64,000 nucleotides of DNA. Source: an uncultured Chloroflexia bacterium (GTDB taxonomy: Bacteria; Chloroflexota; Limnocylindria; QHBO01). The notes under the pieces were generated by a model, which was given only the letters and a program-made list of their open reading frames with translations, was not told the DNA's origin and did no database searches. The position numbers and the translations under genes are program-made. Shown here piece after piece: positions 9,317 through 56,592 of this stretch. The stretch is taken from NCBI GenBank assembly GCA_963805305.1, contig CAWDTM010000008.1:628620-692619 (forward strand), given 5' to 3'. How positions within the stretch are numbered: the stretch's first letter is position 1; every line of letters starts with the position of its first letter.

Positions 9317-9480
9317 GCCGCAGATTGTGCACGGCGGCGGGTGCGCGGCGAGCCCCGCTCGGGACGTTCATCCCGGTGGGTCAGGGTCGGATGTCCACGA
9401 ACGGGACCGGCAGGTCATTCGTTGGAACCGATGGAGCACCGAGCAAGACCCGCCCTCCAGCAAGAGGACATGACCAGCAC

Positions 9481-9882: not shown

Positions 9883-9892
9883 GCGTCCCTGC

Positions 9893-11460: not shown

Positions 11461-11511
11461 GCGCATTCAACCCGTTTCGTGTGACGGCCGTGTGAAAGAT
11501 GGGCGAAGGCG

Positions 11512-35749: not shown

Positions 35750-35762
35750 GGGAGCGCGGCGC

Positions 35763-36497
35763 ATGCTGAAGGCGCGCGTGGACCGGCACAAGTGCATTGG
35801 GGCCGGCAACTGCATCACCATCGCGCCCACCGCCTTCGACTGGCTCAAGGGAGACTTCGGCAAGGCCGATGTCGTCGGACCGGGGAGCGTGGAGGAAGAG
35901 CTGCTGCGCACTGCCGCGGACGCCTGCCCCACCGCCGCGATCATCATCGAGGACGTCGAGGAGCTGCTGCCCTGGCAGCTGCGCGGCAAGGCGGGACCGT
36001 CGCGGCGGGTGCTGAAGACCTTCATGTTCACCGACATCGTTGGCTCGACGAACCTCGTCGAGGCCCTGGGCGACGAGGCCTGGGAGACGCTCCTGCGCTG
36101 GCACGACAACACGCTGCGCGAGATCTTCGCCGCGCATTCGGGCGAGGAGGTCTCTTCCACCGGGGACGGCTTCTTCGTGGGCTTCGACTCCCCGGATCTG
36201 GCACTGGCCACGGCCGTGGCCGTCCAGCAGCGCCTGGCAGAGCATCGCGCCAAGAACGGGTTCGCGCCTCAGGTCCGGATCGGGATCCATGTCTCCGACG
36301 CGACCCAGGCCGGTGGCTCGTTCAGCGGGAAGGGCGTCCACGAGGCGGCACGGATTGCCGCCCTCGCCTCCGGGGGCGAGATCCTCGCCAGCGTCGCCAC
36401 CGTGGCCGACACCGCCATCCCCACCTCGGCGCCCCGCAGCGTGATGCTGAAGGGCCTCTCCGAGCCCGTGGACGTCGTCGCGGTGGAGTGGCGCTAG
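35763..36497 (+). CDS. ferredoxin (single [4Fe-4S]-type) fused to class III nucleotidyl cyclase domain
   Basis: N-terminus RVDRHKCIGAGNCITIAPTAF...ADACPTAAI (Cx2..Cx..C ferredoxin pattern). Then a cyclase domain FMFTDIVGST...STGDGFFVGF...RIGIHVSD. Starts 13 nt after the LuxR-STAND stop. Confidence 0.75.
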   Translation: MLKARVDRHKCIGAGNCITIAPTAFDWLKGDFGKADVVGPGSVEEELLRTAADACPTAAIIIEDVEELLPWQLRGKAGPSRRVLKTFMFTDIVGSTNLVEALGDEAWETLLRWHDNTLREIFAAHSGEEVSSTGDGFFVGFDSPDLALATAVAVQQRLAEHRAKNGFAPQVRIGIHVSDATQAGGSFSGKGVHEAARIAALASGGEILASVATVADTAIPTSAPRSVMLKGLSEPVDVVAVEWR

Positions 36498-36537: not shown

Positions 36538-36568
36538 TTGACTCTTACGTTACGTAAGGGTGCATAGT
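36538..36568 (+). promoter_or_regulatory. MerR-type promoter: TTGACT - 19-bp spacer with perfect palindrome CTTACGT-T-ACGTAAG - CATAGT
   Basis: -35 TTGACT at 36538-36543, 19-nt spacer carrying the 7-1-7 inverted repeat, -10-like CATAGT. Immediately upstream of the TipA-like MerR gene. Confidence 0.55.
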
Positions 36569-36575
36569 GCCGCCC

Positions 36576-37355
36576 ATGAACGAATCGGCGGGGGCGAACA
36601 GTCTCAGGGTGGGTGCCGTGGCCCGCATGGCGGGCATCACGGTGCGGACCCTGCACCATTACGACCAGATCGGGCTGCTCCGGCCGGCCGGGCGCTCGGA
36701 TGCGGGCTATCGGCGCTATACCGATGCCGACCTCGAGCGCCTGCAGCAGATCCTCTTCTATCGGGAGCTGGGGTTCGCCCTCGACGAGATCGAGCAGGTC
36801 ATGGCCCGCGGAGCCGCCAGCCCGCTGCTCCACCTTCGGCGGCAGCACGCCCTGCTGCTCGACCGGATCACACGACTCAGGCGGATGGCCACGGCCGTCG
36901 AGAAGGCAATGGAGGCACGAACCATGGGAATCTCACTCACCCCCGAGGAGCGGCTCGAGGTCTTCGGCGACTTCGACCCCGAAGAGCATGCGGCCGAGGT
37001 GCAGGAGCGCTGGGGCGACTCGGACGCGTACCGCGAGTCGCAGCGCCGCGCAGCGCGCTACACGAAGGCTGACTGGGCCCGGATCCGCGACGAGATGGCG
37101 GCGATCACGGAGCGTGCCGCCGCGGCGCTGCGGTCCGGACTGCCTGCCGACGCAACGGAGGCGATGGACGCCGTCGAGGCGCATCGGCTGCAGATCAGCC
37201 GCGACTTCTATCCGTGCTCGCACGAGATCCATGTCGGCCTGGCCGAGATGTACGTCGCAGATCCGCGGTTCACGGCAACGTACGAGAAGGTTGCGCCGGG
37301 CCTGGCGCAGTACGTCCACGACGCGATCCTGGCCAACGCCGCCCGCCATCCCTGA
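36576..37355 (+). CDS. MerR family transcriptional regulator, TipA-like (HTH + TipAS drug-binding domain)
   Basis: MerR HTH VGAVARMAGITVRTLHHYDQIGLL plus a C-terminal TipAS-like domain. ATG at 36576 sits ~8 nt after the -10 box, so the mRNA may be leaderless. The ORF track uses GTG 36567. Confidence 0.8.
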   Translation: MNESAGANSLRVGAVARMAGITVRTLHHYDQIGLLRPAGRSDAGYRRYTDADLERLQQILFYRELGFALDEIEQVMARGAASPLLHLRRQHALLLDRITRLRRMATAVEKAMEARTMGISLTPEERLEVFGDFDPEEHAAEVQERWGDSDAYRESQRRAARYTKADWARIRDEMAAITERAAAALRSGLPADATEAMDAVEAHRLQISRDFYPCSHEIHVGLAEMYVADPRFTATYEKVAPGLAQYVHDAILANAARHP

Positions 37356-37492
37356 CGGGCTCGCCCCGCAGGAACCCGGGCAACGAGGCGGGTGTTGCAC
37401 GCCCGCAACCAACCCTCCTCCGAACGGGACAACCATGCCGGTTCGGCGGACGTGCGGTTACCGGCCCGGAACGATTTGGGTCAGGCGGGATC

Positions 37493-38563
37493 GGCGTAGC
37501 GCCAGGCGGATCGATACTCCCGGACGCAGCCGTAGCAGGTGCCGCCGTCCCACGGCTGGCGCGGGTGCCCGCAGGCATAGACCGATGTCGCGCGTTCGCG
37601 GGGCGGGAACGACGGCCGGGCGCCCACGCCCACGGCCACCGGCGCGACAGCGCGGGCGGGCGCGGCGGTGCTGGAGGCCGACAGGGGCGCGAGCGTGCGA
37701 GCATGGAGGGAGCGCGCGAACCGGGCGAAAGACGTATCGAGACCGCCCGTACGGAGCAGTGCTGCCCAGGCGCGAAAGGCGGGCGAGGTATCGGCGCGCT
37801 GCCAGACCTCGAGCAGGGGCTTCTCCCCGTCCTCGAGGACATGGAGCAGGTCGCGCCACACGGCTTCGCGCTCCGGTTCAAGCATGGTCCTGCGGCGAAC
37901 GCGCAGCGGGAGGTCGGCCGTATCGGCGAGGCCGTCGACGCGATCGATGAGCTGCGCATCCCCAACCGTGACCGGCTCCACCCAGACGGCAACCACGTCG
38001 TCGAGAGGCAGGGATCTGCGCGCGTTCAGCGCCAGCTCCACGCTCCGGGCCCGCGGCCGGTCGAGCGCCACGGCCAGGTCATGTCCGATCCGTGTTCGCT
38101 CGCTCCACGGGAATGCGTCCGAGGCGGGCCGCAGGAAGCACCGGTCCAGGTCGCCGGGATCCGAGAGCAGGTCGGTCGTCGCGTCGAAATCAGGGGCCGA
38201 GAACGGGCGCAGCGCGATCTGCACCGTCGCGGCGCGCTCGAGCACCCGGGGATGGAGCTGAAGGGTGATGGGACCCCGGAGGTTGGGCAGCATCCGCCAG
38301 CCGCGGGCGAACCCCTGGCCGACGTCATCGAGGTCCAGCAGGACGCGCTCCGGCTCGACGTGTGCGCGCTCGATCGGATCCGTCTCGTCCGCGGCGGAGG
38401 CCTGGCCGGCGCGTTGGAGCTCAGCCGGGGAGCCGACACCCGCCAGGCGCAGGTAGCCGGCGAAATCGGTCAGGCCGCAGGCATGCCACAGCGACGCCTC
38501 GCGCGCGCGCAGGGCGGCCACCATCGTCGCGACCTGGTTCGGACCGAACGAGTTCCCTCTCAT
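37493..38563 (-). CDS. hypothetical protein with C-terminal Cys cluster
   Basis: 356-aa ORF, no family recognised. C-terminus has CGHPRQPWDGGTCYGC. Confidence 0.4.
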
Positions 38564-39145: not shown

Positions 39146-40824
39146 TCCTCCGCCGGGAGAGGAGCGGGCTCGGCCCGCATGGGGCCAGCGGTCACGGGCG
39201 CGCCCTCGCCCATCCGACCTGCCGGCATGATGAGCAGGACGAACAGGGCCGCGGCGAGCGTCGCGACGATCCCGATCCCGAAGGTCGCGGCGGTCGCCAG
39301 GGAGAAGGCCTGGTGGATGGCGGAGACCATGGCGCCGATGAACGGCTGAACCTGGGCACGGGCTGCCTCCGGCACCTGGGCCAGGATGGCGGCGCCCAGG
39401 TCACCCACGCCCTGGATGTTGCCGAGGGTCGCGCTGCCGCCCGACCCGAAGCCGCTGGCCACCTGCTGCGGAACGCCGCTCGCGGCCATCTGGCGCGGAA
39501 CCTCCGTGCTGAACGTGGTGGCGAATGCCGATCCCACGATCGCCAGGCCGACCGTGCCGCCCACCTGCTGGAAGAGCGTCAGGCTCGACGTGGCGGTGCC
39601 CAGCTCGCGCACCGGCACGGCGTTCTGCACCACCAGGGTGAAGACGGCAAAGGCCGGTCCCACGCCCAGGCCGGTCACGAGCATCCAGAGCCAGACCAGC
39701 GGCGCCGGCGAGTCGGGGCGCAGGTTGGTCAGCAGGAAGAGGCCAACCGCGGTGGTGACCAGGGCGGCGACGATGAGCGTCTTGTAACGGCCGGTGCGTG
39801 CCACGAGCTGCCCGGAGGCGATGGCGGCCACGATCAGGCCCAGCAGGAGCGGGAGGATCTGGTAGCCGGCCTCCGTCGCGGATGATCCCTCCACGACCTG
39901 GTACCAGCGAGGCAGGAAGACCACCGCCGCGAAGAAGCCCATGGCGACCAGGAAGAAGGCGACGACGCTGGCGGTGAAGGCACGGATCCGGAAGAGCTCC
40001 AGCGGGAGGATTGGCTCCCTGGCCCGCGACTCGATCCAGACGAACGCCGCCAGGAAGAGTGCGCCAACTGCGATCAGGCCGCCCACGGCCGGATCGGTCC
40101 AGTCGCCCGCCTGCTTGTTCGTGAAGCCGATGAGCACCGGCACCAGGGCCGCGACGAGGAGCGAGGCGCCCAGGTAGTCGATGTGGCGGTCCGCGTCGAC
40201 CTCGTGGTGGGTGGGCAGGGTGCGCCAGATGACGAACAGGCTGATGGCGCCCAGGGGCACGTTGACGTAGAAGACCCAGTGCCAGCCGACCGTGTCGGTG
40301 ATGATCCCGCCAATGGCCGGGCCAATGAGGCTGGAGAGCCCGAAGACCGCACCAAAGAAGCCCTGGTACTTGCCGCGCTCCGAGGGCGCGAAGATGTCAC
40401 CAATGATGGCGAGCGCCACCGGGAAGAGCGCGCCCGCACCCAGGCCCTGGATCCCGCGGAAGGCGATGAACTGCCACATCGACCCGGACAGGCCCGAGAG
40501 GATGGACCCGAACAGGAAGACGGTCACGCCGAAGAGGAAGATCGGTCGCCGACCGTAGATGTCGGAGAGCTTCCCGTACATCGGCCCGCTGATGGTGGCC
40601 GTCAGCAGGTAGCTCGTGAAGGCCCAGGTGTAGACGTCGTTCCCGTGCAGGTCGGTGACGATCCTGGGCAGGGCGGTGCCTACCACGGTCTGGTCCAGCG
40701 CCGCCAGGAAGATGCCCAGCAGCACGGCCACCAGGATCTCCATCCGCGTCCGATGGGGCAGCTCGATGGGGGCTCGGTCGTAGGGCGCGGCGCTGTGCGT
40801 CGCGGCAGGGTTGGTCGCGGTCAT
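39142..40824 (-). CDS. MFS transporter, DHA2 (EmrB/QacA-like) 14-TM drug:H+ antiporter family
   Basis: 560 aa, 14 predicted TM segments, motif A (GKLSDIYGRRP). Sits near the TipA-like regulator. Confidence 0.85.
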   Translation of the reverse strand: MTATNPAATHSAAPYDRAPIELPHRTRMEILVAVLLGIFLAALDQTVVGTALPRIVTDLHGNDVYTWAFTSYLLTATISGPMYGKLSDIYGRRPIFLFGVTVFLFGSILSGLSGSMWQFIAFRGIQGLGAGALFPVALAIIGDIFAPSERGKYQGFFGAVFGLSSLIGPAIGGIITDTVGWHWVFYVNVPLGAISLFVIWRTLPTHHEVDADRHIDYLGASLLVAALVPVLIGFTNKQAGDWTDPAVGGLIAVGALFLAAFVWIESRAREPILPLELFRIRAFTASVVAFFLVAMGFFAAVVFLPRWYQVVEGSSATEAGYQILPLLLGLIVAAIASGQLVARTGRYKTLIVAALVTTAVGLFLLTNLRPDSPAPLVWLWMLVTGLGVGPAFAVFTLVVQNAVPVRELGTATSSLTLFQQVGGTVGLAIVGSAFATTFSTEVPRQMAASGVPQQVASGFGSGGSATLGNIQGVGDLGAAILAQVPEAARAQVQPFIGAMVSAIHQAFSLATAATFGIGIVATLAAALFVLLIMPAGRMGEGAPVTAGPMRAEPAPLPAED

Positions 40825-41037
40825 GGAATCTGCTCGGTCCTTGTTCGGGTTGGGCGGCGCAGCGTCGCGGCTGCTGCCAACGAGTGCGCGCGGAAGTCTA
40901 CCGCGGATTCGTCAAGAGGTCGTTCCCCTGATCCTGCAGTGCGTTCCTGCCACCTGCTGGCGCGAATCGTCCGTCCCGGCGGCCCGGATCCTCCGCATGG
41001 TTAGCCACACGAGCCTTACGACGCCCGGCGCGGTCTC

Positions 41038-41064
41038 CAATGGTCATTTGGTTACCGATTCGAG
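41038..41064 (+). repeat. dispersed intergenic repeat copy (aatGGTCATTTGGTTACCGATTCGAGC)
   Basis: Near-identical to 61816-61836 (cGGTCGTATGGGTAATCGAGC) and 55787-55808. Confidence 0.5.
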
Positions 41065-41291
41065 CCGGGTGACCCTCGAACCGCCAGCCAGGGCCGCCCA
41101 GAGCTCCGCCGGCGGTCACAGGGTTCGCCACGCTAACCGCGCGCGGGTCCCCCACCCGGCGGTGGGCGCGAATCCATCGACGGGACGAGCGGGATCGCGC
41201 AGAATGTGCCGCACGTTCGCCGCCGGCGGACGGCAGCAGTCCGAGGGGACCCCGCGTTGGCGCTGACCAGCACCGCCCCGGATCCGAACCC

Positions 41292-44200
41292 ATGACGAAA
41301 CCTTCCCCGTCCGCCGAGCTGGCTGCAGCACGGAAACGGATCGCGGAGCTCGAGGCGCGCGAGGCCGCGCACGAGCGCGCCGCCCAGGTGCAGGCGGCGT
41401 TGTATCGCATCGCCGAAACCGCCGCATCGGCTCAGGACCTGCCGACCTTCTACGCCACCGTGCACGAGATCGTGGGCGGCCTCATGTACGCGGACAACTT
41501 CTACATCGCGCTCTACGACGCCGAGCGCGAGCGCATGAACTACCCGTACTTCGTCGACACGTACGACTCGGACGTGCCCGATCCCAACGCGTGGGAGCCG
41601 TTCGGCGTGGGGCAGGCCCGGGGTGTCACCGCCTACGCCCTGCGCAGGGACCAGCCATTGCTCATCGATCCGGCCGAGTATCAGCGCCTCCTGGAGGCCG
41701 GCGAGATCGAGACCCTGGGCGTCGTCAAAGACGAGAGCCAATGGTTGGGCGTGCCACTGCGCGCCGAGGGGAGGACTCTGGGTCTGCTGGTGGTCCAGAG
41801 CTACTCCGCCGACCACCGCTACACCGATGCGGACAAGGACCTGCTGGTGTTCGTTGCCCAGCACGTCGCCTCCGCGCTGACGCGCGCCCGGGCCCTCAAG
41901 GAGACGCGCGAGCGGAACGCCGAGCTGGCGATCGTGAACGAGGTCGGCCTGGCGCTGGCGAAGCAGCTGGATTTCAGCGCCGTGATCAACCTTGTCGGCG
42001 ACCGGATCCGCGAGATCTTCGCGGTCGACACGGGGAACATCGGCCTCTACGACGAGGCAGCTTCCACGATCCAGCTCCCCTACTCCATGGACCAGGGCCG
42101 GCGGCTGGAGATGATCTCGCGACCGTTCGGGACCGGGCTGATGTCGGAGGTGATCAGCACCCGGGCGCCACTGCGTCTCAACACGAACGCCGAGGCGGAG
42201 GCGCATGGAGCCTTCATCTACGGATCCGACGAAGCGGAGTCCTGGCTCGGCGTCCCCATCCTTGCCGGTGATCGCGTTCTGGGCGCCATCGGCCTGGAGC
42301 GAGCCGCCCAGCACGCCTTCAGCGAGTCCGACGAGCGCCTGCTCTCCACGCTCGCCGCCAGCATGGGCGTCGCGCTCGAGAACGCGCGCCTCTTCGACGA
42401 GACCAAGCGGCTCCTGGCCGAGACCGAGCAGCGCAACGCCGAGCTGGCGGTCATCAACGAGATCGGTGCAGCGCTGGCGAAGCAGCTGGATTTCGATGCG
42501 ATCACCGAGCTCGTCGGAGAGCGGGTGCGGGCCATCTTCTCCGCGTCGTCCGTGTTCGTGGCCCTCTACGACGAGGCGTCCGGCGTCATCCGCTTCCCGT
42601 ACGAGATCGGCGAGGGCCAGCGGATGCACACCGAGCCCATGCCGCTCAACGAGGGTCTGACCTCGCAGGTCATCCGCTCCCGGACGTCGTTGCGGCTGGG
42701 GTCCACCGCGGAGTCGAGCGCCGCGGGAGGCATCAGCGTGGGAGATGCCTTCACGGAGTCGTGGGTCGGGGTGCCGATCCTCAGCGCCGGCCGCGTCATT
42801 GGCGTGATTGGCCTCGAAAGCCCGCAGGTCAACGCCTACACGGAGGCCGACGAGCGGCTGCTCGCAACGCTCGCCTCGAGCATGGGCGTGGCCCTGGAGA
42901 ACGCGCGTCTGTTCGGTGAGACGAAGCGCCTCCTGGCCGAGACCGATGCGCGCGCCAACGAGCTCGCGGTCATCAACGAGATCGGTGCGGCCCTGGCGCG
43001 GCAGCTCGATTTCAACGCCATCATCGAGCTCGTCGGCGACCGCGTCTCTCAGATACTCCGCTCCAGGGACGTGTCCATCGCCATCCACGACCCGGCGACA
43101 GACCTCATCAGCTTCCCGTACCAGACGGAGGACGGCAAGCACTTCGTCGATGAACCGATTCCCCTGGGGGCTGGGATCACCTCGCGGATCATCCAGACCA
43201 GGGAACCCCTCCGGATTGGTACGGCAGCCGAGGCCGATCTCCTGGGTGCTCACTGGACGGGGAACACCGCCGAGCGCAAGGACTCGTATCTCGGCGTTCC
43301 CATCCCCGCCAGCGACCGCGTGCTGGGAGTCGTCTCGGTGGTTGCCAGCGCCCCGAACGCCTTCTCGGATGCCGACGAACGCCTGATCTCGACCCTCGCC
43401 ACCTCGATGGGCGTTGCGCTGGAGAACGCGCGCTTGTTCGGCGAGACGAAGCGCCTCCTCGCGGAGACGGACGAGCGTGCGGCCGAGCTGGCCATCATCA
43501 ACAGCGTCCAGCAGGGCCTCGCGGCAAACCTGGACATGCAGGCCATGTACGACCTGGTGGGTGACAAGATCCAGGAGATCTTCGATGCGCAGGTGGTCGA
43601 CATCGGCATCCTCGACAGGGACGCCAACGCGATCCAGTTCACGTACACCATCGAGCGTGGGGTGCGCTTCCCGAACGAGACCATGGCCGTCATCGGGCCC
43701 CGCCGCCACGTCCTTGAGACCCGCGAGCCACTCGTCTTCAACGAGGACCTGCTGAACCAGGTCCGGCAGTACGGGCAGGAGGGCGTGGTGTCCGGCGAGC
43801 TGCCGCAGTCGGCGGTCTACGCGCCGCTCATCAGCGGCGGCGAGGCGCGCGGCGTCATCAGCCTCCAGAACCTCGACCGCGAGCACGCGTTCTCGGATGC
43901 CGACGTCCGGCTCCTGATGACCCTTGCCAGCAGCCTGGCGGTCGCGCTCGACAATGCGCGGCTCTTCGGTGAGACGAGGCGCCTTCTGGGCGAGACGGAC
44001 GAGCGTGCCGCCGAGCTGGCGATCATGAACAGCGTCCAGCAAGGCCTTGCCCAGAACCTGGACATGCAGGCGATGTACGAGCTCGTCGGGGACAAGATCC
44101 AGGAGATCTTCGACTCCCAGGTGGTCGACATCGGCATCTTCGACCTCGAGGCAGGGGTGGTCCGCTATCCATACACCATCGAGCGCGGCGTCCGGTTCCC

Positions 44201-47200
44201 GGACCTGCCCACCCCGCTGGCCATGGCCGACCTGTCGCGCGAGATGCTCGCGACCGGCAGCGCCATCCTGATCAACGACGTCCCGGCCTGGGAGGCCGAG
44301 CGCGAACGTTCGGGCGTTGTCCAGGGAGAGCCGCCCCTCTCGGTCCTTATGGTCCCCATCACCTCTGCCGGCACCATCACCGGGCGGATCTCCCTCCAGA
44401 ACCTCGACCGCAGGAATGCCTTCAGCCAGGCCGATCTCCGGCTTCTCTCGACCCTGGCCGCCAGCCTGTCCGTGGCGCTCGACAACGCCCGGCTCTTCGA
44501 CGAGACGAACCGGCGCGCGGCCGAGCTCGCCATCGTCAACGACCTGCAGCGTGCGCTCGCATCGCAGGTCGACGTGCAGGCCATGTACGAGCTGGTGGGC
44601 GAGCGGGCGAACGACGTCTTCGACACGCACGTCGTGGACATCGCCGTCTTCGACCAGGCCGCTGGGACGATGCGGTTCCCCTTCAGCGTCGAACGCGGCA
44701 GCCGGTTCCCGGACGAAGTGCGGCCCATCATGGGCTTCCGCAAGCACGTCCTCGAGAGCCGCATGCCCCTGCTCATCAGCGAGAAGCTGCGCGAGATCGG
44801 CGCCCAGTACGGGCAGGGAGCGCAGATCAAGGGAGAACCGGCGAAGTCGGCCCTCTTCGTGCCGCTCCTCGTTGGCGAGGAGGTGGCCGGCGTCATCAGC
44901 CTCCAGAACCTCGACCGGGAGCATGCATTCACGGACCGCGACCTCTCCCTGCTGACGACCCTGGCCGCCAGCCTCTCCGTGGCGCTGCGGACCGGGCGCC
45001 TGATCGACGAGACCCGCGCGCGCGTGGCGGAGCTGGCGACCATCAACTCGGTGGGCGAGGCGCTGACCGCGCAGGTCGAGATCGCTCCCCTGCTCGAGGT
45101 GGTTGGCGACAAGCTGCGCGACGCCTTCGGGGCCGATATCGCCTTCATCGCGCTGCTGGACGAGGCGGCGGGCCTCATCCGCTTCCCGTACTACGTCGAA
45201 GCCGGAGCCCGGGAGCCGCAGGAGCCCATGGCCCTTGGCGAAGGCCTCAGCTCGCAGATCATCACCACCCGTGAGCCAATCCTCGCCAACCGCGCAGCGG
45301 AGCTCGAGCACGCCCCGCTGGTCGGCACCCGTCCGCGCTCGTTCCTGGGCGTGCCCATCGTGGTCGGCGAGCGCGCCATCGGCGTCATCAGCGTCCAGAG
45401 CACCACCCAGGAGGGTCGCTTCCAGGAGTCCGATGCCCGCCTGCTGTCGACCATTGCCGCGAACGTGGGGGTCGCCGTCCAGAACGCCCGGCTGTATGAC
45501 GAGACCCGGCAGCGCGCGGACCAGATGGCGGCCCTGGCCGACGTGAGCCGCGAGATCTCCGCCACGCTGGAGCGTTCCGCGGTGCTGCACATGATCGCGG
45601 AGCGCGCGAAGACGCTGCTGCGGGGCGACTCCAGCGTCGTGTACCTGCGCACCGACGACCCCGACGTCTTCCGCGCGGAGGTCGCCATTGGACAGCTGGC
45701 GGATGCCGTCCAGGGATTCCCGCTCCTGCGCGGGACGGGGATCATGGGCGCCATCATCGAGTCCGGCCGCGCCGAGGTCGTGAACGACGCCCGCAACGAC
45801 CCGCGCGCCCAGACCATCCCCGGCACGGAGGACGACGAGGAGGACCGCCTCATGGCGGCACCGCTCATCGTCCGCGGCGAGGTGAGCGGCATGCTCGCGG
45901 TCTGGCGGTCCGTTGGCGTCGAGGACTTCAGCGAGCTGGACCTCAGCTTCCTGGTGGGCCTCTCGCAGCAGGCCGCCATCGCGGTGCAGAACGCCGCGCT
46001 CTTCGAGGACACCCTCGAGGCCCGCCAGGCCGCCGAGCAGGCGAACGAGGCCAAGAGCTCGTTCCTGGCGGCCATGAGCCACGAGATCCGGACCCCGTTG
46101 AACGCGGTGATCGGGATGAGCGGACTGCTCGTCGACACGCCGCTCAACGAGGAGCAGCACGACTACGCGGAGACCATCCGCACCTCCGGAGACGCGCTGC
46201 TGACCATCATCAACGACGTCCTGGACTTCTCGAAGATCGAGGCGGGCCGCGTGGAGCTCGAGGCGCGACCGTACGTTCTCCGCGAGGCCGTCGAGGCGTC
46301 GCTCGACATCCTGGCGCCCACGGCGGCCAAGAAGGGCCTGGAGCTGGTCTACGCCATCGACGAGGACCTGCCAACGGTCCTCGTCGGCGACGCCGGCCGC
46401 CTGCGCCAGGTGGTCCTGAACCTGCTCTCGAACGCGGTGAAGTTCACCGAGCGCGGGGAGGTGCTCGTCACCGTGGCCGGGGCGGAGGTGCGCGCCGCGA
46501 CCGGTCGTGCCGCGGCGACCTGGGAGATCCGGGTCGACGTGCGGGACACCGGCATCGGGATCCCCGCCGCCGCCATGGATCGGCTCTTCCAGTCCTTCAG
46601 CCAGGTGGACGCCTCCATTGCACGCCGGTACGGCGGCACCGGACTGGGCCTGGCCATCAGCCGCCGCCTGGCCGAGCTGATGGACGGCTCCCTGACCGCG
46701 GAGAGCAGCGGCAAGGCCGGGGAGGGCAGCACCTTCCACCTGGTGATCCGCAACCCGGTCGGCAGGGCGGACGCCGTGGCCTCCACCCGCGCACCGCGCA
46801 TCGAGGCGGACCTCGGCGGCAAGACGGTCCTGATCGTGGACGACAATGCCACGAATCGCCGCATCCTCGTCGCCCAGACCGCTCGGTGGGGCATGGTCCC
46901 GCGGGAGACGGGCTCCCCCACCGAAGCGCTGGCCTGGCTTGCCGGCGGGGAGCGGTTCGAGGTCATCCTCTCCGACCTGATCATGCCGGAGATGGACGGC
47001 CTGGAGCTCGCCGCGCAGGTTCGCGCGTCGAACGGCAAAGGCGTCCCGCCACCGGTCGTGATCCTCTCCTCCATAGGGCTCCGGGAGCGCGACGACGGGA
47101 GCGTCGCCGGCTGGCTCGCCAAGCCGGTCAAGCCCTCCGCCCTGCATGACACCATCGCAACCATCCTGCTCGGCGGGGTTGCCACCCAGGCGGCTGCGGT

Positions 47201-47684
47201 CGCCACCAGCGGGGCCGACGCCGACACCGTCCTCGGGGAGCGGCACCCGCTGCGCATCCTCCTCGCGGAGGACAACGCGGTGAACCAGAAGCTTGCCCTC
47301 CGGCTCCTGGCCCAGCTCGGCTACGCAGCCCCGGTGGCAGGGGACGGGCTGCAGGCCATTTCGGCGCTCGAAGGCGGCGACTTCGACGTTGTCCTCATGG
47401 ACGTCCAGATGCCGGAGCTCGATGGGCTGGAGGCGACCCGCCGCATCCGCGCCCGCTGGCCGGACCGTCCGCTGCGGATCGTGGCCATGACCGCCAACGC
47501 CATGGCCGGCGACCGCGAGGCGTGCCTCGCGGCGGGCATGGACGACTACATCAGCAAGCCCATTCGCGTCGCGGAGCTCACCGCGGCGCTCGAGCGGGTG
47601 CCGGGCACCGGTCCGACGATTGGCCGGCATCGGACCCGCAAGCAGTCCTCCAGGACCAACGGCAAGAGGAACGCACGTGCCTGA
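41292..47684 (+). CDS. multi-GAF (about 9-10 domains) hybrid sensor histidine kinase with two receiver domains
   Basis: Repeating units: GAF domains separated by conserved coiled-coil linkers (ENARLF(D/G)ETKRLLAET(D/E)...AELA(V/I)IN). Then HisKA ([20 protein letters not shown]), HATPase_c ([13 protein letters not shown]) and two REC domains ([13 protein letters not shown]; [13 protein letters not shown]). 2130 aa. Confidence 0.85.
41886..45560 (+). repeat. intragenic diverged tandem repeat array (~525-bp period, about 8 units) encoding linker+GAF modules
   Basis: Linker-coding blocks recur at ~41886, 42381, 42900, 43425, 43950, 44475, 44990 and 45480. Adjacent units share up to ~85% nucleotide identity by eye. 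Confidence 0.55.
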
Positions 47685-48048
47685 CCAAACACCGGTGCTC
47701 GACGAGTCCGTCCTGGCCGAGCTGCAGACCTCGACGGGAGACGACGCGGCCTTCGTCCGCGAGCTGATCGACACCTTCCTGGCCGATGTCTCGGTCCAGC
47801 TGGACGGCATCGCCGCAGCAGTGCAGGCCAATGATCCCGCTGCCCTCGTCCGGCCGGCGCACACCCTCAAGTCCGGGAGCGCCACCGTGGGTGCCATGCG
47901 GCTGGCCGCGGTTGCGCGCGAGCTGGAGTTTGCGGGCAGATCCGGTGCCCTGGACGCCGGCGCGCAGCGCGGCCTGGAGACCGCCCGAGCAGAAGCCGAT
48001 GCGGCACGCCAGGCCATGGCGGCCTGGCTGGACCGGGAGGTCGGCTGA
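47677..48048 (+). CDS. Hpt (histidine phosphotransfer) domain protein
   Basis: [13 protein letters not shown] (Hpt HxxKG motif). GTG start overlaps the kinase stop. Its stop overlaps the next gene's ATG. Confidence 0.7.
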
Positions 48049-49133
48049 TGGCCAGCGGTATCGCCCTGGTCGTCGACGACTCCCCGGTCAACCGGCTGGT
48101 CCTCACCAAGCGCCTCGAGGCGCTGAACCTGGAGGTGCTCCAGGCCGAGAATGGCATGCAGGCCCTGGAGCTGCTGGGCGCCAGGCCCGGCGTGGTGGAC
48201 GTGGTCCTGCTCGACGTGGTGATGCCCGAGCTCGACGGATACGAGACGCTCGCCGCCATGAAGGGCGACCCTGCCACGCAGCACATCCCGGTGCTGGTGG
48301 TCTCCAGCGTCGAGGAGCTGGACTCGGTGGTGCGCTGCATCGAGCTGGGTGCGACCGATTACCTTCCCAAGCCCATCGACCCGCCCATCCTCGCGGCACG
48401 CATCAACGCCTCCCTGGCCGCCAAGCGCCTGCACGACGTGCAGCAGGAATCGCTCGAGCGCGAACGGGCGCTGAACAGGACCATCGAGCGGCAGAAGGAG
48501 GAGCTGAGCCGATTCCTCTCCCCCCAGATCGCGGCGCTCGTCTCCTCGGCCGAGGGCGAGCAGCTGCTGGCAGGGCATCGGCGGGAGATCACGGTGGTCT
48601 TCTGCGACCTGCGCGGCTTCACAACGTTTGCGGAGCAGGCGGACCCCGAGGCGTTGTTCGCCCTCCTCGGGGAGTACCACGGCATGCTGGGGCAGGCGAT
48701 CATCGAGCACGGCGGCACGCTCGAGCACTTCGCCGGCGACGGCGTGATGGTCTTCTTCAACGACCCCATCGCCCAGGAGGACCATGTCGAGCGCGCGGTC
48801 CGCATGGCGGTGACCATGCGCGAACGCTTCGCGGAGCTCGGGGCGCTCTGGCACAAGCGCGGCTACGAGCTGGGGCTGGGTGTGGGGATCGCGGTGGGAT
48901 ACGCCACGCTGGGAAGGATCGGATTCGAGGGGCGGCACGACTACGGCGCCATCGGCAACGTCACGATCCTCGCGTCGCGTCTGTGCAGCCAGGCCCAGGC
49001 GGGGCAGATCCTGCTCAGCCCGCGGGCGCAGACCATCATCGAGGAGCTCGTTGAGTCCGAGTCCGTTGGCGAGCTGACCCTGAAGGGGCTGACCCGGCCG
49101 GTCCTGGCCAGCAACGTGGTTGCCCTGCGCTGA
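48048..49133 (+). CDS. response-regulator receiver fused to class III nucleotidyl cyclase
   Basis: REC (IALVVDDSPVNRLVLTKRL...DVVLLDVVMPELDGYETL...KPID) then a cyclase domain (TVVFCDLRGFT...LEHFAGDGVMVFFNDP...GVGIAVGYATLGRIG). Confidence 0.8.
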   Translation: MASGIALVVDDSPVNRLVLTKRLEALNLEVLQAENGMQALELLGARPGVVDVVLLDVVMPELDGYETLAAMKGDPATQHIPVLVVSSVEELDSVVRCIELGATDYLPKPIDPPILAARINASLAAKRLHDVQQESLERERALNRTIERQKEELSRFLSPQIAALVSSAEGEQLLAGHRREITVVFCDLRGFTTFAEQADPEALFALLGEYHGMLGQAIIEHGGTLEHFAGDGVMVFFNDPIAQEDHVERAVRMAVTMRERFAELGALWHKRGYELGLGVGIAVGYATLGRIGFEGRHDYGAIGNVTILASRLCSQAQAGQILLSPRAQTIIEELVESESVGELTLKGLTRPVLASNVVALR

Positions 49134-49174
49134 GGCGCCGCGGCGGCACGGTGGGGCGCGAGCCTGCGCCGGCC

Positions 49175-49185
49175 GGGTGGTAACC
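49175..49185 (+). repeat. dispersed repeat core (GGGTGGTAACC)
   Basis: Lies in the 282-nt intergenic region upstream of XRE paralogue 2 that holds three motif copies. Confidence 0.35.
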
Positions 49186-49230
49186 CCATTGCCGGTGTGA
49201 CCGCCCGGCCACGAGCGGTCGGCGCCGGAC

Positions 49231-49247
49231 GGTTGGCCGGGTAATCC
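49231..49247 (+). repeat. dispersed repeat copy (GGTTGGCCGGGTAATCC)
   Basis: Same intergenic region. Confidence 0.4.
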
Positions 49248-49311
49248 AGCAGACCGCGCAGCCGGTGGGCCTGTCCCTGGGCGGAGACCAGCTCCCGAAC
49301 GGCGTCTTCGG

Positions 49312-49330
49312 CGGTCGTTCGGGCAATGCC
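49312..49330 (+). repeat. dispersed repeat copy (CGGTCGTTCGGGCAATGCC)
   Basis: Same intergenic region. Reads in-frame as GGRSGNAMTGRAWAARGRVVTPR. Confidence 0.45.
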
Positions 49331-49415
49331 ATGACCGGCCGGGCGTGGGCGGCGCGGGGGCGGGTGGTAACGCCGCGATAAGCGTGCGGTGGGCGTCCCG
49401 CGGCAATGATCTGGC

Positions 49416-50069
49416 ATGGCCGCGCGCACGAACCGCGTCGACGAGGCTGGACGGCGGGCCTCATGGCAGCTGGCCGGCCTGGTTCGTGAGCTCCGCGCGG
49501 CTCGCGTCAGCGCGGGCCTCAGCCAGGCCACGGTCGCCCGCGCGGTGGGCTGCTCCCGCGAGCTGGTGAAGGCCTGGGAAAGCGGCCGTTCGAGTCCCTC
49601 GGTCACGCGGCTCGCCCGCTGGGCGTGCGCAGTCGGGCTGGACGTTCCGCTGCGGACCTATCCCGGTGGATCGCCGCTTCGCGACGCGGGGCAGCTGCGC
49701 GCGCTGGGGCGCGCTCGCGCCACCATCGGCGGCGAATGGGCGTGGCGTGCAGAGGTGCCGGTCAGTTCGGACCCGCTGGACCGCCGGGCGGTAGATGCGG
49801 TGCTCGAGCTGGACGAGGTGCGCGTCGGCGTGGAGGTCGTTTCCCGGCTCGGCGATGCTCAGGCCGAGGTCCGCCGGGCCATCCTGAAACAGGAGGTCGC
49901 ACAGCTGGACCGGTTGCTCCTGGTGCTGCCCGATACCCGTCACAACCGGCGCGCCGTGATGGAGGGCGCCGCGACGCTGCGAAGCGCGTTCCCTCTTGCC
50001 TCGCGGGCGGTCCTGGCCGCCTTGCGCGCAGGGCGGCTTCCGGGCGCCAATGGAGTGCTGCTCGTCTGA
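49416..50069 (+). CDS. XRE-family HTH protein with conserved C-terminal domain (paralogue 2)
   Basis: HTH (LRAARVSAGLSQATVARAVGCSRELVKAWESGRSSPS). C-terminus ends RAVLAALRAGRLPGANGVLLV, homologous along its length to 18728..19384. Confidence 0.7.
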   Translation: MAARTNRVDEAGRRASWQLAGLVRELRAARVSAGLSQATVARAVGCSRELVKAWESGRSSPSVTRLARWACAVGLDVPLRTYPGGSPLRDAGQLRALGRARATIGGEWAWRAEVPVSSDPLDRRAVDAVLELDEVRVGVEVVSRLGDAQAEVRRAILKQEVAQLDRLLLVLPDTRHNRRAVMEGAATLRSAFPLASRAVLAALRAGRLPGANGVLLV

Positions 50070-50921: not shown

Positions 50922-51234
50922 CGTCCCCGCGGGCCCAACCCGAGCCCAAGCGAGGCCATCCCAGGTACCGCGGGGCTACTCGGTGTCGCGCTGCACCGGG
51001 CAAAGGTCCCGAGCGACCCCGGACGGGCTATCGGAGCAGGCCGCCGGGCGCCTAGATTCCCGCCGAACCGTCGCGGCCGATGGCAGACCGGGGGACGTCC
51101 GAGCCCCTCCGCCGGCCGCCACGCCGGGGAGGTGCATGCCCTTGACAGGTCGTCGCTAGGTGATGCGGACCTGCCCTGCCGCGGGTCCCGCCAGCCCCCT
51201 TCAGCTCCACGCTGATCATCCTTGGAGGAAGACC

Positions 51235-53286
51235 ATGTTCCGAGCGCCTCGTCCTGGGGCCGTGCCGTTCCACTCTCCACTCACGAGCAGGGTGCTTGCT
51301 GCGGTGTGCACCGCCGCCGTGACCCTCCTCGCCATGGGGCCGGTCACCGCGCTCGCCGCGACGAGCACCCTTTCGAACCCGACCTCGCTCTCCGGCGACT
51401 CGACCCTGACCGCGGTCGGCTTCACCGCCAGCGGCGCGGGGGTCACCGCCACCGGCACCGCGGAGATCACCGTCCACTGGACGCAGCCGGCGTCGCTGGC
51501 AACCACCTTCGATCCGAACCTCGTCCGCCAGGGCCGGGCCCTGGATCCGTCTGACGCCTACACCCGGACCGGGTCGGGCGCCATGTCGGTGGACTACACC
51601 ATCGACAACCTGCAGGTCTCCTGGGACGGCCTCGGCCCGTTCGACCTCGGGAACCCGACGTACACCACCACGGGCAGCTGCGACCTGATGGCCGGCGGGC
51701 CTGACTACACCTGCCATCTCGAGAGCGACCAGATCACGCTCCTCGACCCCACCCCGCTCCCCGGCCCCTTCGTCAAGCTGCGGCTGGTGTCCGACGTGAC
51801 CGTCACGCCGGACGGGATCGCAACCGTGCGGACCGCGTCGTTTGGCGGCGTGGCGGACGGGACCGCGAACCTGTCGCTGGGGGAATCGCCCATCACCGAC
51901 AACCTCACCATCCCCTGCACCGCCGGCGCCGGTGACGAGATGAGCTACGACCTTGGCTCGGTCTCGGCCACCCCGGGGATCAGCGTCGACAGCGGCCTCG
52001 AGTTCGACGTCGGCACCTCGATCCCCAACCCCTTCTTCCCGGTCCCCGACCCGGTGGACCCGGTCATCTACATCACCTTCGCCTCGCCCACCATCGACCT
52101 CGGCTCGACCGCGGGTGACGTCACCGTCAGCGGCGCGGGCGCGACGTTCGACATGGGCGCGGTCCAGGCCAACAACATCCCGCCCACGGTCGACGCGGGC
52201 GGCCCGTACGCCGGTGCCGAGGGCAGTCCCGTCACGTTCGACGGCTCCGGCTCCTCGTCCATCTGCGGCTTCCCGACCCTCCGTTGGGACTTCTCCGATG
52301 GCGGCGTCGCCTTCGGCGCAATGCCCCAGCACACCTTCCAGGGCCCGGGCGTGTTCAGCGGCCTGCTGACCGCCACCGATCCCACGGGTCTCTCCGCCAT
52401 GACGACCTTCTCCGTGACCATCGCGAACCTGGCACCGGTGGTCGAGGCCGGACCGGACACCACGGCGGCATGGGGGCGCCTCGTTGCGTTCAACGGCAGC
52501 GCCACCGATCCAGGGGCCGATGACCAGTCGACCCTGGCCTACGCGTGGACCTTCGGCGATGGGTCCCCGTCCGCGAGTGGCGGTGGAAGCACGTTCCACG
52601 CCTACTCGGTCCCAGGTGACTACGTCGCCACCCTGACCGTCTGCGACCGATGGTCCGCCTGTTCCTCCGACACCCGGACGGTCCACGTCCGGAAGCGGAC
52701 CGTCACCGTGGGCGACCTGGGCGACACCGCCGGGACGTACGACACGCCCGGAGCCCTGAGCGCCTCCCTCGTCGATGAGTTCGGCGAGACGGTGAACGGA
52801 CGCACCATCGCCTTCTCGGTGGATGGCGCAGCCGCGGGTTCGGCGGTGACGAATGCGTCGGGTACCGCCTCGGTGGCCTACACGCCGCTCGTCGACGCAG
52901 GCACGCACGCCACCGGCGCATCGTTCGCCGGCGACAGCCTGTACGAGGCGGGTGCCGGGTCGAGCAGCATCGCCATCGGCGTCAAGGCGACATCGGTGAC
53001 CTACACCGGTGCGCTTTCGAGCAAGCCGAACAAGACCATCACCCTCAGCGCCGTGCTGAAGGACGCGACCGGCAAGCCGCTTGCCGGCCGGACCATCGTG
53101 TTCGTGCTGGGCAGCCAGACGGCGGCCGCGGTCACCGACGCGTCGGGACTGGCCTCCACCGACCTGAAGCTCAAGCAGAAGAACGCGATGTACCTGCTGA
53201 CCGCCACCTGGACGCCGTTGGGAGCCGATGCGAACCGCTACGCGGGCAGCGCCGACTCCGCGACGTTCAGCCTCCAGGCCAAGTAG
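51235..53286 (+). CDS. large secreted protein with PKD and Ig-like (Big) domains
   Basis: RBS GGAGGAAG 5 nt upstream of ATG 51235. Signal peptide (VLAAVCTAAVTLLAMGPVTALAA). Two PKD-like modules (FDGSGSS...WDFSDGG; FNGSATDPG...WTFGDGS) and C-terminal Ig-like repeats. Confidence 0.7.
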   Translation: MFRAPRPGAVPFHSPLTSRVLAAVCTAAVTLLAMGPVTALAATSTLSNPTSLSGDSTLTAVGFTASGAGVTATGTAEITVHWTQPASLATTFDPNLVRQGRALDPSDAYTRTGSGAMSVDYTIDNLQVSWDGLGPFDLGNPTYTTTGSCDLMAGGPDYTCHLESDQITLLDPTPLPGPFVKLRLVSDVTVTPDGIATVRTASFGGVADGTANLSLGESPITDNLTIPCTAGAGDEMSYDLGSVSATPGISVDSGLEFDVGTSIPNPFFPVPDPVDPVIYITFASPTIDLGSTAGDVTVSGAGATFDMGAVQANNIPPTVDAGGPYAGAEGSPVTFDGSGSSSICGFPTLRWDFSDGGVAFGAMPQHTFQGPGVFSGLLTATDPTGLSAMTTFSVTIANLAPVVEAGPDTTAAWGRLVAFNGSATDPGADDQSTLAYAWTFGDGSPSASGGGSTFHAYSVPGDYVATLTVCDRWSACSSDTRTVHVRKRTVTVGDLGDTAGTYDTPGALSASLVDEFGETVNGRTIAFSVDGAAAGSAVTNASGTASVAYTPLVDAGTHATGASFAGDSLYEAGAGSSSIAIGVKATSVTYTGALSSKPNKTITLSAVLKDATGKPLAGRTIVFVLGSQTAAAVTDASGLASTDLKLKQKNAMYLLTATWTPLGADANRYAGSADSATFSLQAK

Positions 53287-53367: not shown

Positions 53368-53694
53368 ATGGTGCCATTGGCTCACCCCCGTACGAAGCAG
53401 CTCATCGTCGTGCTCCTGGGGATCGCGCTTGTGCTGGCGGCCTGTGTCGCGGGCCCGAATCCCGACGTCGGCACCGCAGCCGCCGGGGGAAGCTCTGCCG
53501 GCTTCTGGCTGGGTCTCTGGCACGGCTTCATCGCCCCCATCACCTTCATCGTGTCGCTCTTCACCGAGTCGGTGAGCGTCTACGAGGTCCACAACAGCGG
53601 CAACTGGTACGACTTCGGCTTCGTGCTGGGCGCCGGCATCCTGTTCGGTGGCGGCTTCTTTGGCGCCGGGCGCTCCCGGGGGAGCACGCACTAG
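53368..53694 (+). CDS. small membrane lipoprotein (hypothetical)
   Basis: Signal/lipobox LVLAACVAG plus two hydrophobic segments. 108 aa. Confidence 0.4.
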   Translation: MVPLAHPRTKQLIVVLLGIALVLAACVAGPNPDVGTAAAGGSSAGFWLGLWHGFIAPITFIVSLFTESVSVYEVHNSGNWYDFGFVLGAGILFGGGFFGAGRSRGSTH

Positions 53695-55893: not shown

Positions 55894-56592
55894 CTACGTC
55901 TCTGCTGGAGCTCCCCCGGCGCGCAGGAGCCCGGACTCGTAGGCGACCACCACGGCCTGCGCCCGGTTGTGGAGTTCCAGCTTGGCCAGGATTCCCGCGA
56001 CGTGGGTCTTGACCGTTGCCTCGGAGACGACCAGGGCCTCCGCGATCTCGGCGTTGCTCATGGCGCGGGCCACCAGCCGGAACACCTCGAGCTCCCGCGC
56101 GGTCAGCGCGGAGAGGGCCTGGGTGGCGGCGGGCGGCGGCGCATCGGTCCTGGCGTAGCGCTCCACCAGGCGACGGGTGATGGTGGGGGCCAGCAGGGCG
56201 TCGCCGGCCATGACGGTGCGAACCGCGGCGACCAGTCGTTCCGGCGAAACGTCCTTGAGCAGGAACCCGCAGGCGCCCACCTGCAGCGCGGCGTACACGT
56301 ACTCGTCGAGGTCGAAGGTGGTCAGGATGATCACCCGGGGCGCAGCCGCCCCCGGGCCGGCGGATCCCGCCATGATCTGGCGGGTCGCCTCGATGCCGTC
56401 CATGCCGGGCATGCGGACGTCCATGAGCACCACGTCCGGCCGATGGCGCCGGACAAGGCGGACTGCCTCCTCGCCCTGGGTGGCCTGCGCAATGACGGTG
56501 ATATCCGGCTGCGCCTGCAGGATCATCTGCAGCCCGGCGCGCACCAGCTGCTGGTCGTCGGCGACAAGGACGCGCACGGGCTGGTCGGTCAT
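55894..56592 (-). CDS. NarL/FixJ-family response regulator (REC + LuxR HTH)
   Basis: VLVADDQQLVRAGL...DVVLMDVRMPGMDG; C-terminal LTARELEVFRLVARAMSNAEIAEALVVSEATVKTHV. Confidence 0.85.
   Translation of the reverse strand: MTDQPVRVLVADDQQLVRAGLQMILQAQPDITVIAQATQGEEAVRLVRRHRPDVVLMDVRMPGMDGIEATRQIMAGSAGPGAAAPRVIILTTFDLDEYVYAALQVGACGFLLKDVSPERLVAAVRTVMAGDALLAPTITRRLVERYARTDAPPPAATQALSALTARELEVFRLVARAMSNAEIAEALVVSEATVKTHVAGILAKLELHNRAQAVVVAYESGLLRAGGAPAET

Follow-up and report, generated by a model that had tools for sequence, protein, structure and literature searches.

A predicted three-gene phosphorelay ending in a cyclase-homology domain with an altered active site in an uncultured Limnocylindria bacterium

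A stretch of 64,000 nucleotides from an uncultured Chloroflexia bacterium of the Limnocylindria (contig CAWDTM010000008.1, positions 628,620–692,619; the whole of this stretch is termed the window, G+C approximately 70%) carries three adjoining genes. These encode a very long hybrid sensor kinase with tandem GAF domains, a histidine phosphotransfer (Hpt) protein, and a response regulator in which a receiver is joined to a cyclase-homology domain (REC-cyclase). The locus raises the question of whether the three proteins form one pathway, and if so what the long GAF array contributes at its beginning and what the cyclase-homology domain does at its end. The explanation that best accounts for the data as a whole, and which we consider probable, is that the cassette encodes a self-contained four-step phosphorelay that leads to a coiled-coil-switched class IIIb-like cyclase and begins with a GAF scaffold of five types.

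The order kinase, Hpt, REC-cyclase had been proposed in an earlier reading of this DNA (the original prediction), and the open reading frames are found exactly where that reading placed them:
41292..47684, + strand: hybrid sensor histidine kinase, 2130 aa (open reading frame list, Pfam, G+C at third codon positions (GC3) 0.92, matching public gene call)
47677..48048, + strand: Hpt phosphotransfer protein, 123 aa, GTG start (Pfam Hpt PF01627, E-value = 6e-14, junction sequence, public gene call)
48048..49133, + strand: REC-cyclase response regulator, 361 aa, ATG start (open reading frame list, junction, Pfam)
A protein-cluster look-up shows public gene calls with identical lengths for all three proteins (2130, 123 and 361 aa). 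GC3 of the three genes is 0.92–0.93, which identifies the + strand as the coding strand. A 2757 aa open reading frame (41133..49406, − strand) lies antisense to the whole cassette; no domain supports it, the GC3 signal is on the + strand, and it was rejected as a high-GC artefact. A filter based on open reading frame length could take it for a giant gene.

The kinase and Hpt genes overlap by 8 nt, with the Hpt GTG at 47677 and the kinase TGA at 47682–47684; this junction reads aagaggaacgcacGTGCCTGAcc. The Hpt and REC-cyclase genes overlap by 1 nt (TGATG) and this junction reads gggaggtcggcTGATGgcc. Both overlaps were part of the original prediction and both are present in the junction sequences. 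A purine-rich Shine-Dalgarno-like motif is situated about 7 nt ahead of the start codon at each junction, GAGG 7 nt before the Hpt GTG (aagaggaacgcacGTGCCTGA) and GGGAGG 7 nt before the REC-cyclase ATG (gggaggtcggcTGATGg). The overlaps recur in orthologs, where kinase-stop/Hpt-start junctions display the pattern (A/G/T)TG-(G/C)(C/T)-TGA (NTGSCTGA), ATGA or a 14 nt overlap, and Hpt-stop/cyclase-start junctions display ATGA, GTGA or TGATG. The overlapping start and stop codons would couple translation of the kinase, Hpt and REC-cyclase. Scans of positions 40700–49600 for regulatory RNAs, promoters and terminators found none.

All domains named in the original prediction are recovered by Pfam models, with scores well clear of the cut-offs. 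Those that participate in phosphotransfer, in addition to the Hpt domain, are:
46050..46751, + strand: HisKA (aa 1587–1652) and HATPase_c (aa 1699–1820) of the kinase, with phospho-His1597 in SHEIRTP (Pfam)
46824..47591, + strand: kinase receivers REC1 (approximately aa 1845–1960; D1895, K1944) and REC2 (aa 1989–2100; D2037, K2089) (Pfam)
48057..48407, + strand: receiver domain of the REC-cyclase, aa 4–120, with D10, D11, phospho-acceptor D56, S86 and K108 (Pfam)
The E-values are 4e-22 for HisKA (PF00512), 3e-25 for HATPase_c (PF02518), 1.5e-40 for the two Response_reg stretches of the kinase and 3.6e-25 for Response_reg (PF00072) in the REC-cyclase. The kinase core is nearest to the BarA, TorS, ArcB and LuxQ models (E-values 1e-95 to 1e-122, below the equivalog cut-offs), and the Hpt is weakly LuxU- and TorS-like. 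A Pfam scan of the 2130 aa kinase shows only GAF, HisKA, HATPase_c and receiver domains; a membrane or extracytoplasmic module was not found, and the whole relay is probably cytoplasmic.

A protein database holds more than 8000 relatives of the REC-cyclase at an E-value of 1e-20 or better. The top 120 clusters of these are 74–100% identical, approximately 362 aa long and carry the same two domains; the named members are Chloroflexota or Candidatus Limnocylindria bins from soil metagenomes. A genome scan, with one genome per species, for the motifs FCDLRGFT and TLEHFAGD gave at least 600 matching stretches. The best 80 of these (loci, numbered from L001 on) were taken as a set, and their open reading frames were translated and searched with the Hpt, the cyclase, the core of the kinase and a single GAF unit from the window. 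They come from Limnocylindria/Limnocylindrales, other Chloroflexota, Alpha-, Beta- and Gammaproteobacteria (among them the cultured Bradyrhizobium liaoningense), Actinomycetota, Binatia and Methylomirabilota. Within this set about 25 Limnocylindria/Limnocylindrales genomes (L001–L025) share the cassette in synteny, with the multi-GAF hybrid kinase directly upstream and the Hpt between kinase and cyclase wherever the contig is long enough; the Hpt is found downstream of the cyclase instead in L018, L020, L021, L025 and L035. Of the genes flanking the cassette in the window (MFS, HTH protein, methyltransferase and others), recurrence among the loci examined is limited to L001, the closest relative; thus the conserved unit consists of exactly the three genes. 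No account of a kinase-Hpt-REC-cyclase cassette was found in the searchable literature, whose coverage is incomplete.

In phyla further removed, the genes ahead of a homologous REC-cyclase encode a non-hybrid kinase and, in place of the Hpt, a separate receiver (approximately 125 aa). The partnership of kinase and REC-cyclase is therefore older than its Hpt-based version. This trio is found at loci L026–L079 in Proteobacteria, Actinomycetota and others, e.g. at L071 in B. liaoningense (8337–11490). In three MFD long-read bins (L008, L015, L016) the orthologous kinase gene is broken into several overlapping open reading frames in different frames; these are probably assembly frameshift errors, not pseudogenes, and would inflate gene counts.

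The original prediction would be called into question by a loss of phospho-acceptor residues on alignment, and these residues are all present and invariant in orthologs. His1597, D1895/K1944 and D2037/K2089 of the kinase are identical in 22 full-length orthologs from L001–L025. Phospho-His62 of the Hpt, in AHTLKS, a motif of the HxxKG/S type, is invariant in 30 Hpt homologs. D10, D11, D56, S86 and K108 of the REC-cyclase are invariant in the alignment of close homologs (A1), and D56 is kept at all loci. The Hpt sequence itself varies greatly, with 28–71% identity among orthologs, far below that of the cyclase domain. In cassette orthologs the Hpt gene adjoins and overlaps the kinase gene, and in L022, L047 and L061 the Hpt domain is inside the kinase polypeptide as a C-terminal fusion. 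The fusion in three genomes argues, in the classical way, that Hpt and kinase are functionally linked.

Thus synteny, kinase-Hpt fusions, recurring overlaps and invariant acceptors strengthen the three-gene relay logic proposed earlier, and a His-Asp-His-Asp relay to the cyclase is well supported by inference from them. From these features we infer the partners and the direction of phosphotransfer as follows. A signal sensed within the GAF array would modulate autophosphorylation of His1597; the phosphoryl group would pass to an Asp of an internal kinase receiver, then to His62 of the Hpt and finally to Asp56 of the REC-cyclase. For the internal receiver, identity to the window kinase among orthologs is 69–93% for REC2 versus 50–80% for REC1, and this higher conservation weakly favors REC2 (D2037).

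The array at the N-terminal side of the kinase had been described as about ten tandem GAF domains. The tandem array stands but the count does not. Pfam finds GAF_2 in nine stretches (E-value = 1.7e-129), and a search with a profile built from the kinase's own repeats gives exactly nine units, aa 34–1577. A recurring helical segment of approximately 30 residues joins successive units. On the basis of the self-profile, pairwise identities and ortholog mapping the units are:
41391..41915, + strand: GAF1 (aa 34–208), N-terminal type
41919..43463, + strand: GAF2–GAF4 (aa 210–724), type A
43482..45026, + strand: GAF5–GAF7 (aa 731–1245), type B
45027..46022, + strand: GAF8 (aa 1246–1409) and GAF9 (aa 1410–1577), kinase-proximal
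Pairwise identities divide the nine units into five types, termed 1, A, B, 8 and 9. Type A units share 53–55% identity and type B units 48–60%, GAF8 is about 40% identical to types A and B alike, GAF1 has 17–28% identity to the other units, and GAF9 stands alone with 16–21% identity to the remaining ones.

Every GAF unit of 15 orthologous kinases was assigned to the best matching of the five types. Most of these kinases follow the order 1-[A]n-[B]m-8-9, where n is about 1–6 and m is 0–4, for totals of 5 to 12 GAFs; the window kinase has three A and three B units. The GAF1 type is the best match of the first unit in 13 of the 15 and is not recognisable in L013 and L014. The GAF8-GAF9 pair likewise ends the array in 13, with L001 ending in 7-9 and L024 in the GAF8 type. 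The smallest arrays (L018, L021, L023) have a single unit of each type. L001, with a cyclase 91% identical to that of the window, has an internal GAF pattern different from that of the window kinase. No DNA-level tandem repeats were found in the GAF region, thus the duplications are not recent.

These data bear on the claim that the length of the array implies many small-molecule or cofactor inputs, i.e. that each of some ten GAFs binds a different ligand and the kinase integrates many inputs. The ligands of GAF domains are diverse in general, and the units, about 17–60% identical, are divergent enough for different pockets. Yet there are only five types, the extra copies in the window kinase are triplications of two of them, orthologs with the same Hpt and cyclase use as few as five units, the internal pattern changes even in L001, and no unit closely matches a ligand-defined GAF. 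The claim is thus not supported, and nine or ten separate inputs appear quite improbable: types A and B are amplified, and anything from 5 to 12 units feeds the same Hpt and cyclase. The sequences argue for an array of at most five kinds of GAF, two of which have an evolutionarily adjustable copy number. The kinases offer a ready-made range of array lengths, from 5 to 12 GAFs between the same end units, suited to asking how the copy number of a sensor domain affects signalling.

At the other end of the predicted relay, the receiver of the REC-cyclase is followed by two regions:
48408..48572, + strand: helical linker and cyclase-transducer element (LSRFLSPQ, aa 153–160) (AlphaFold2 (AF2) helix, alignment to 6FHT)
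48573..49130, + strand: class III cyclase-homology domain (alignments to 3r5g, 2w01, 6fht and 1wc0, fold match, conservation)
The AF2 model (mean predicted local distance difference test score, pLDDT, 81.5) predicts a canonical receiver and an unbroken helix, residues 112–154, that runs on from the last receiver helix. In the alignment to 6FHT, the segment LSRFLSPQIAALV falls on the cyclase-transducer element of Cya2, which contains FGRY, and R155, F156 and P159 are invariant in the alignment of close homologs. In 6FHT the coiled-coil linker and transducer element gate the catalytic dimer (PMC5995499). Fold matches of the whole chain are the REC-GGDEF regulators WspR, DgcR and PleD. A coiled-coil switch is therefore proposed, modelled on REC-GGDEF enzymes and on coiled-coil-coupled cyclases. 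Phospho-Asp56 would re-register the long helix that extends from receiver alpha5 through the coiled-coil linker to the transducer element, and the shift would toggle a homodimeric class IIIb-like cyclase between unproductive and productive arrangements.

The cyclase-homology domain matches Guanylate_cyc (PF00211) with an E-value of 9.6e-18 and 64.9 bits. Its matches among solved structures, with template modelling (TM) scores from Foldseek, are:
Pseudomonas aeruginosa CyaB (3R5G): E-value = 1e-35, 38% identity, TM 0.84
6FHT, a Cya2-derived 741 aa chimera: E-value = 1.1e-29, 28–34% identity, TM 0.23–0.24
Synechocystis guanylate cyclase Cya2 (2W01): E-value = 8e-28, 34% identity, TM 0.79–0.81
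Spirulina CyaC (1WC0): E-value = 5e-18, 29–30% identity, TM 0.75–0.76
At the canonical catalytic and specificity positions the domain shows the following:
Metal-binding Asp pair: D187 (FCDLRGFT) and D231 (GDG), kept as in CyaB, CyaC and Cya2
Transition-state Arg: R311, kept as in CyaB, CyaC and Cya2
Phosphate-binding Lys: K346 (LKG), kept as in CyaB, CyaC and Cya2
First base-specifying residue: His227, versus Lys in CyaB and CyaC and Glu in Cya2
Second base-specifying residue: Gly300, versus Thr in CyaB and CyaC and Gly in Cya2
Transition-state Asn: Ile307, versus Asn in CyaB, CyaC and Cya2

The original prediction had pointed to a His in place of the purine-specifying Lys in LEHFAGDG. The motif is found at aa 225–232, and in the alignment His227 takes the place of the Lys; in two further changes, Asp/Thr is replaced by Gly300 and Asn by Ile307. 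Neither the pair Lys plus Asp/Thr (ATP) nor the pair Glu plus Cys/Ser/Gly (GTP) is present, His227 and Gly300 being found instead, and of the Asn-Arg transition-state pair only Arg311 is present. The expectation of one cyclic-nucleotide output presumed a normal cyclase. It cannot be carried over, because with the second base-specifying residue and the catalytic Asn also replaced, neither product nor activity can be assumed. Since neither defining residue set is complete, the output domain is classed as a class III cyclase-homology domain and is not filed as a demonstrated adenylate or guanylate cyclase. The other parts of the system are assigned to the hybrid-kinase, Hpt and receiver families.

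The three substitutions are not peculiar to the window. Fifteen close homologs all have His227, Gly300 and Ile307, and all 25 cassette orthologs carry His, then Gly or Ala, then Ile (Val once). The whole clade keeps D187, D231, R311, K346 and FxDxxGFT, and among orthologs the cyclase domain is 56–89% identical, equal to or above the receiver. A HMMER scan of 1.84 billion cluster representatives gave 4119 proteins at an E-value of 1e-30 or better, and residues were counted in the 143 domain alignments that span the catalytic core among the best 150 of these:
Lys position: Arg 63, His 51, Glu 9, Gln 6, Lys 3
Asp/Thr position: Gly 67, Ala 49, Ser 12, Thr 10
Asn position: Asn 115, Ile 16
By these counts the window cyclase belongs to a large clade without the Lys-Asp/Thr pair and, within it, to a sub-clade that is also without the Asn. 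The REC-cyclases at loci L026–L079 retain the Asn and carry Arg, His, Gln or Lys at the Lys position. No account of a His/Gly/Ile cyclase, or of a characterised member of the Arg/His-Gly/Ala clade, was found in the searchable literature, with the same incomplete coverage as above.

Asn304, three residues ahead of Ile307, accompanies it in 12 of the 16 Ile-bearing cluster representatives, versus 10 of the 115 with Asn at position 307 (Fisher p = 3e-8). Cassette orthologs have N, Q, M or T at position 304, and some relatives carry both Asn residues; an Asn relocated to position 304 was thus rejected as a requirement, and a relocation of the catalytic Asn is unproven.

The His/Gly/Ile subtype is also fused directly to one, two or four GAFs, to REC-GAF and to dCache-HAMP (P0138, P0145, P0157, P0123, P0231). 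The sub-clade domain is a general output module, and coupling of GAF to cyclase recurs with and without a phosphorelay. In the direct GAF-cyclase fusions the transducer element (...ELSRFLSPQ) follows immediately on the last GAF.

The first base-specifying position is Glu in guanylate cyclases (PMC4215837). In EaPycC, a Pycsar cyclase that forms cyclic CMP (cCMP), Arg142, four residues before the metal Asp146, is needed for CTP use (PMC11224242); by the numbering, Arg142 may occupy the same position. PADLOC PycC models match the REC-cyclase at 72.5 bits, slightly above the Pfam cyclase score. Membership in Pycsar was considered and rejected: no effector gene is adjacent (the neighbours are the kinase, the Hpt, an HTH protein and a methyltransferase), and solved PycC is not among the top sequence or fold matches. 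The model match reflects shared class III ancestry.

A second cyclase is encoded in the window (54381–55802, − strand, 473 aa). It displays a class IIIa catalytic domain (Pfam E-value = 1.8e-59, 200.8 bits) with the full canonical K, D, N and R set in FADVVDFT, KIKTIGDCYM and DLWGDAVNTAGRM. Its N-terminal half is hydrophobic and probably membrane-spanning, a transducer-like LLLNVLPRSIAEKL segment is present, and the gene adjoins a NarL-type regulator (55894–56634) and a HisKA_3 kinase (56589–57785). Since this neighbouring cyclase is canonical, the His/Gly/Ile departures are specific to the REC-cyclase and not lineage-wide.

Several points weigh against a relay that ends in an active cyclase. 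Three of the six canonical catalytic and specificity residues are changed (H227, G300, I307), and we know of no characterised cyclase with His/Gly at the base-specifying positions. The AF2 model is a monomer built on a shallow alignment of 15 sequences, with low confidence at residues 150–176 and 289–301. Searches of the GAF units against solved structures give weak generic GAF matches (best E-values 5e-6 to 1e-8), and the genes neighbouring the cassette, in the window and at the loci, include none for a cyclic-nucleotide receptor. Loss of the Asn strongly lowers the activity of mammalian cyclases, in which the Asn-Arg pair is called essential, according to work as cited in PMC4215837.

These points could be taken further, to a relay that is real but ends in a pseudo-enzyme, which would bind a nucleotide or a partner and signal by phosphorylation-controlled dimerisation or interaction, with no cyclic nucleotide made. 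None of the canonical Lys, Asp/Thr and Asn residues is left, Ile or Val is found at the Asn position in every cassette ortholog, the Pfam score is modest (64.9 bits versus 200.8 for the neighbouring cyclase), and that canonical K/D/N/R adenylate cyclase, encoded 5 kb away, could supply cyclic AMP (cAMP). However, both metal Asp residues, the transition-state Arg, Lys346 and FxDxxGFT are retained clade-wide, the domain evolves as slowly as the receiver, and the transducer element that regulates catalysis is kept, with its conserved Arg155. Moreover, in Ma1120 of Mycobacterium avium, a catalytically active cyclase, Ala stands in for the Asn, and putting the Asn back destroyed its activity (PMC4215837). 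A pseudo-enzyme is thus rather unlikely. The retained metal and triphosphate residues, the transducer element, the slow evolution and the precedent of Ma1120 argue instead for activity. The domain most likely still binds a nucleoside triphosphate and metal and cyclises the triphosphate; that is, it is most likely an active cyclase, but one whose base preference and product cannot be read from sequence.

The retention of the Asp residues with loss of Lys, Asp/Thr and Asn is also the pattern of a C1-type half-site, and further cyclase genes are present in the same window. The domain might then be the C1-like half of a heterodimeric cyclase, with a partner such as the cyclase at 54381–55802 providing Lys, Asp and Asn. 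This arrangement is highly improbable. The transition-state Arg, a C2-type residue, is retained, and no second cyclase gene is conserved beside the cassette, the flanks matching only in L001. The neighbouring cyclase is membrane-bound, belongs to class IIIa, carries a complete residue set itself and is encoded on the opposite strand. CyaB, Cya2 and CyaC, the nearest relatives of solved structure, form homodimers. Pairing with the neighbouring cyclase in particular was rejected, as no linkage is conserved across the loci.

A more far-reaching proposal, unlikely when its parts are taken jointly, is that the His/Gly/Ile domain and the surrounding Arg/His-Gly/Ala clade make a product other than cAMP (cGMP, a cyclic pyrimidine nucleotide or another), with the GAF array as a length-tunable sensor stalk. 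If true, soil Chloroflexota and many Proteobacteria and Actinomycetota would run housekeeping two-component pathways ending in a non-canonical second messenger that is unrelated to phage defence.

Among the remaining genes of the window, an open reading frame of up to 339 aa (35478–36497, + strand) shows a single-cluster 4Fe-4S ferredoxin domain (aa 100–157) followed by a partial cyclase-homology domain (aa 181–272, E-value = 7e-7), with homologs in L017 and L077; the pairing is unusual and might represent a redox-linked or degenerate cyclase. A 1120 aa AAA_16 and LuxR-type regulator (32387–35749, + strand), a TipAS/MerR regulator (36567–37355, + strand) and a PKD/Big_1 repeat protein (51160–53286, + strand) flank the region; their place next to the cassette is conserved only in the closest relative. 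Open reading frames 37481–38563 (− strand, 360 aa) and 53368–53694 (+ strand, 108 aa) are coding, with GC3 of 0.86–0.89; they belong to no Pfam family, and L001 has conserved counterparts of the two.

Limnocylindria are abundant in soil and uncultured, and their signalling is uncharacterised. The cassette ranks among their most conserved signalling modules, with a cyclase that is 75–91% identical across more than 100 protein clusters. The base-reading and ribose-positioning residues of its cyclase depart from every characterised enzyme. They do so within a large and widespread clade (at least 600 matching stretches) whose product may be cAMP, cGMP or a cyclic pyrimidine nucleotide, if there is one at all. 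The significance of the cassette would rise substantially only if the cyclase product proves non-canonical.

Of known systems, CyaC of Spirulina and Anabaena is similar in GAF sensing, in His-Asp phosphotransfer and in a receiver directly before a homologous class IIIb-like catalytic domain. Spirulina CyaC is activated by phosphorylation of the receiver proximal to that domain (PMC3009899). However, CyaC is one polypeptide with two GAFs and a K/T/N active site, whereas the cassette consists of three genes with an extra His (Hpt) step, nine GAFs and H/G/I. CyaB (3R5G) and Cya2 (2W01) are the closest solved structures and share the metal Asp residues, the Arg and the phosphate Lys with the window cyclase; Cya2, with 6FHT, also shares the transducer element and the Gly at the second specificity position. 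The specificity and Asn positions are Lys/Thr/Asn in CyaB, Glu/Gly/Asn in Cya2 and His/Gly/Ile in the window cyclase, and the regulatory modules are MASE2, CHASE2 and a receiver, respectively.

REC-GGDEF proteins (PleD, WspR, DgcR) also combine a receiver, a helical stalk and a palm-fold nucleotide cyclase active as a dimer, and the receiver of the REC-cyclase is most similar to that of PleD (E-value = 8e-33). Their activation by a phosphorylation-driven change in the dimer or coiled coil (PMC8041772) is the model borrowed for the REC-cyclase. In contrast to these proteins, the output in the window is a class III cyclase-homology domain, there is no I-site, and the product, if any, would be a mononucleotide. 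Among non-canonical cyclases (Ma1120, Rv1900c, Pycsar PycC), the Lys position can hold residues tied to other base preferences, and Ma1120 (Ala) shows that an enzyme can be active without the Asn, but none has the His/Gly/Ile combination or a receiver.

Phosphorelays with a separate Hpt (LuxQ-LuxU-LuxO, Sln1-Ypd1-Ssk1, and those of ArcB/TorS/BarA-type kinases) are textbook systems and share the His-Asp-His-Asp logic. Unlike these, the cassette has two tandem receivers, no detected membrane or periplasmic sensor module, and a terminal regulator that is an enzyme and not a transcription factor. Two-component control of a class IIIb cyclase (CyaC) and separate-Hpt relays are thus already known, and the wiring of the cassette is ordinary two-component logic. 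What is new is a split three-gene His-Asp-His-Asp relay ending in a cyclase and conserved across a poorly known soil class, a His/Gly/Ile active site within a large Arg/His-Gly/Ala clade, and a GAF array of five types with variable copy number.

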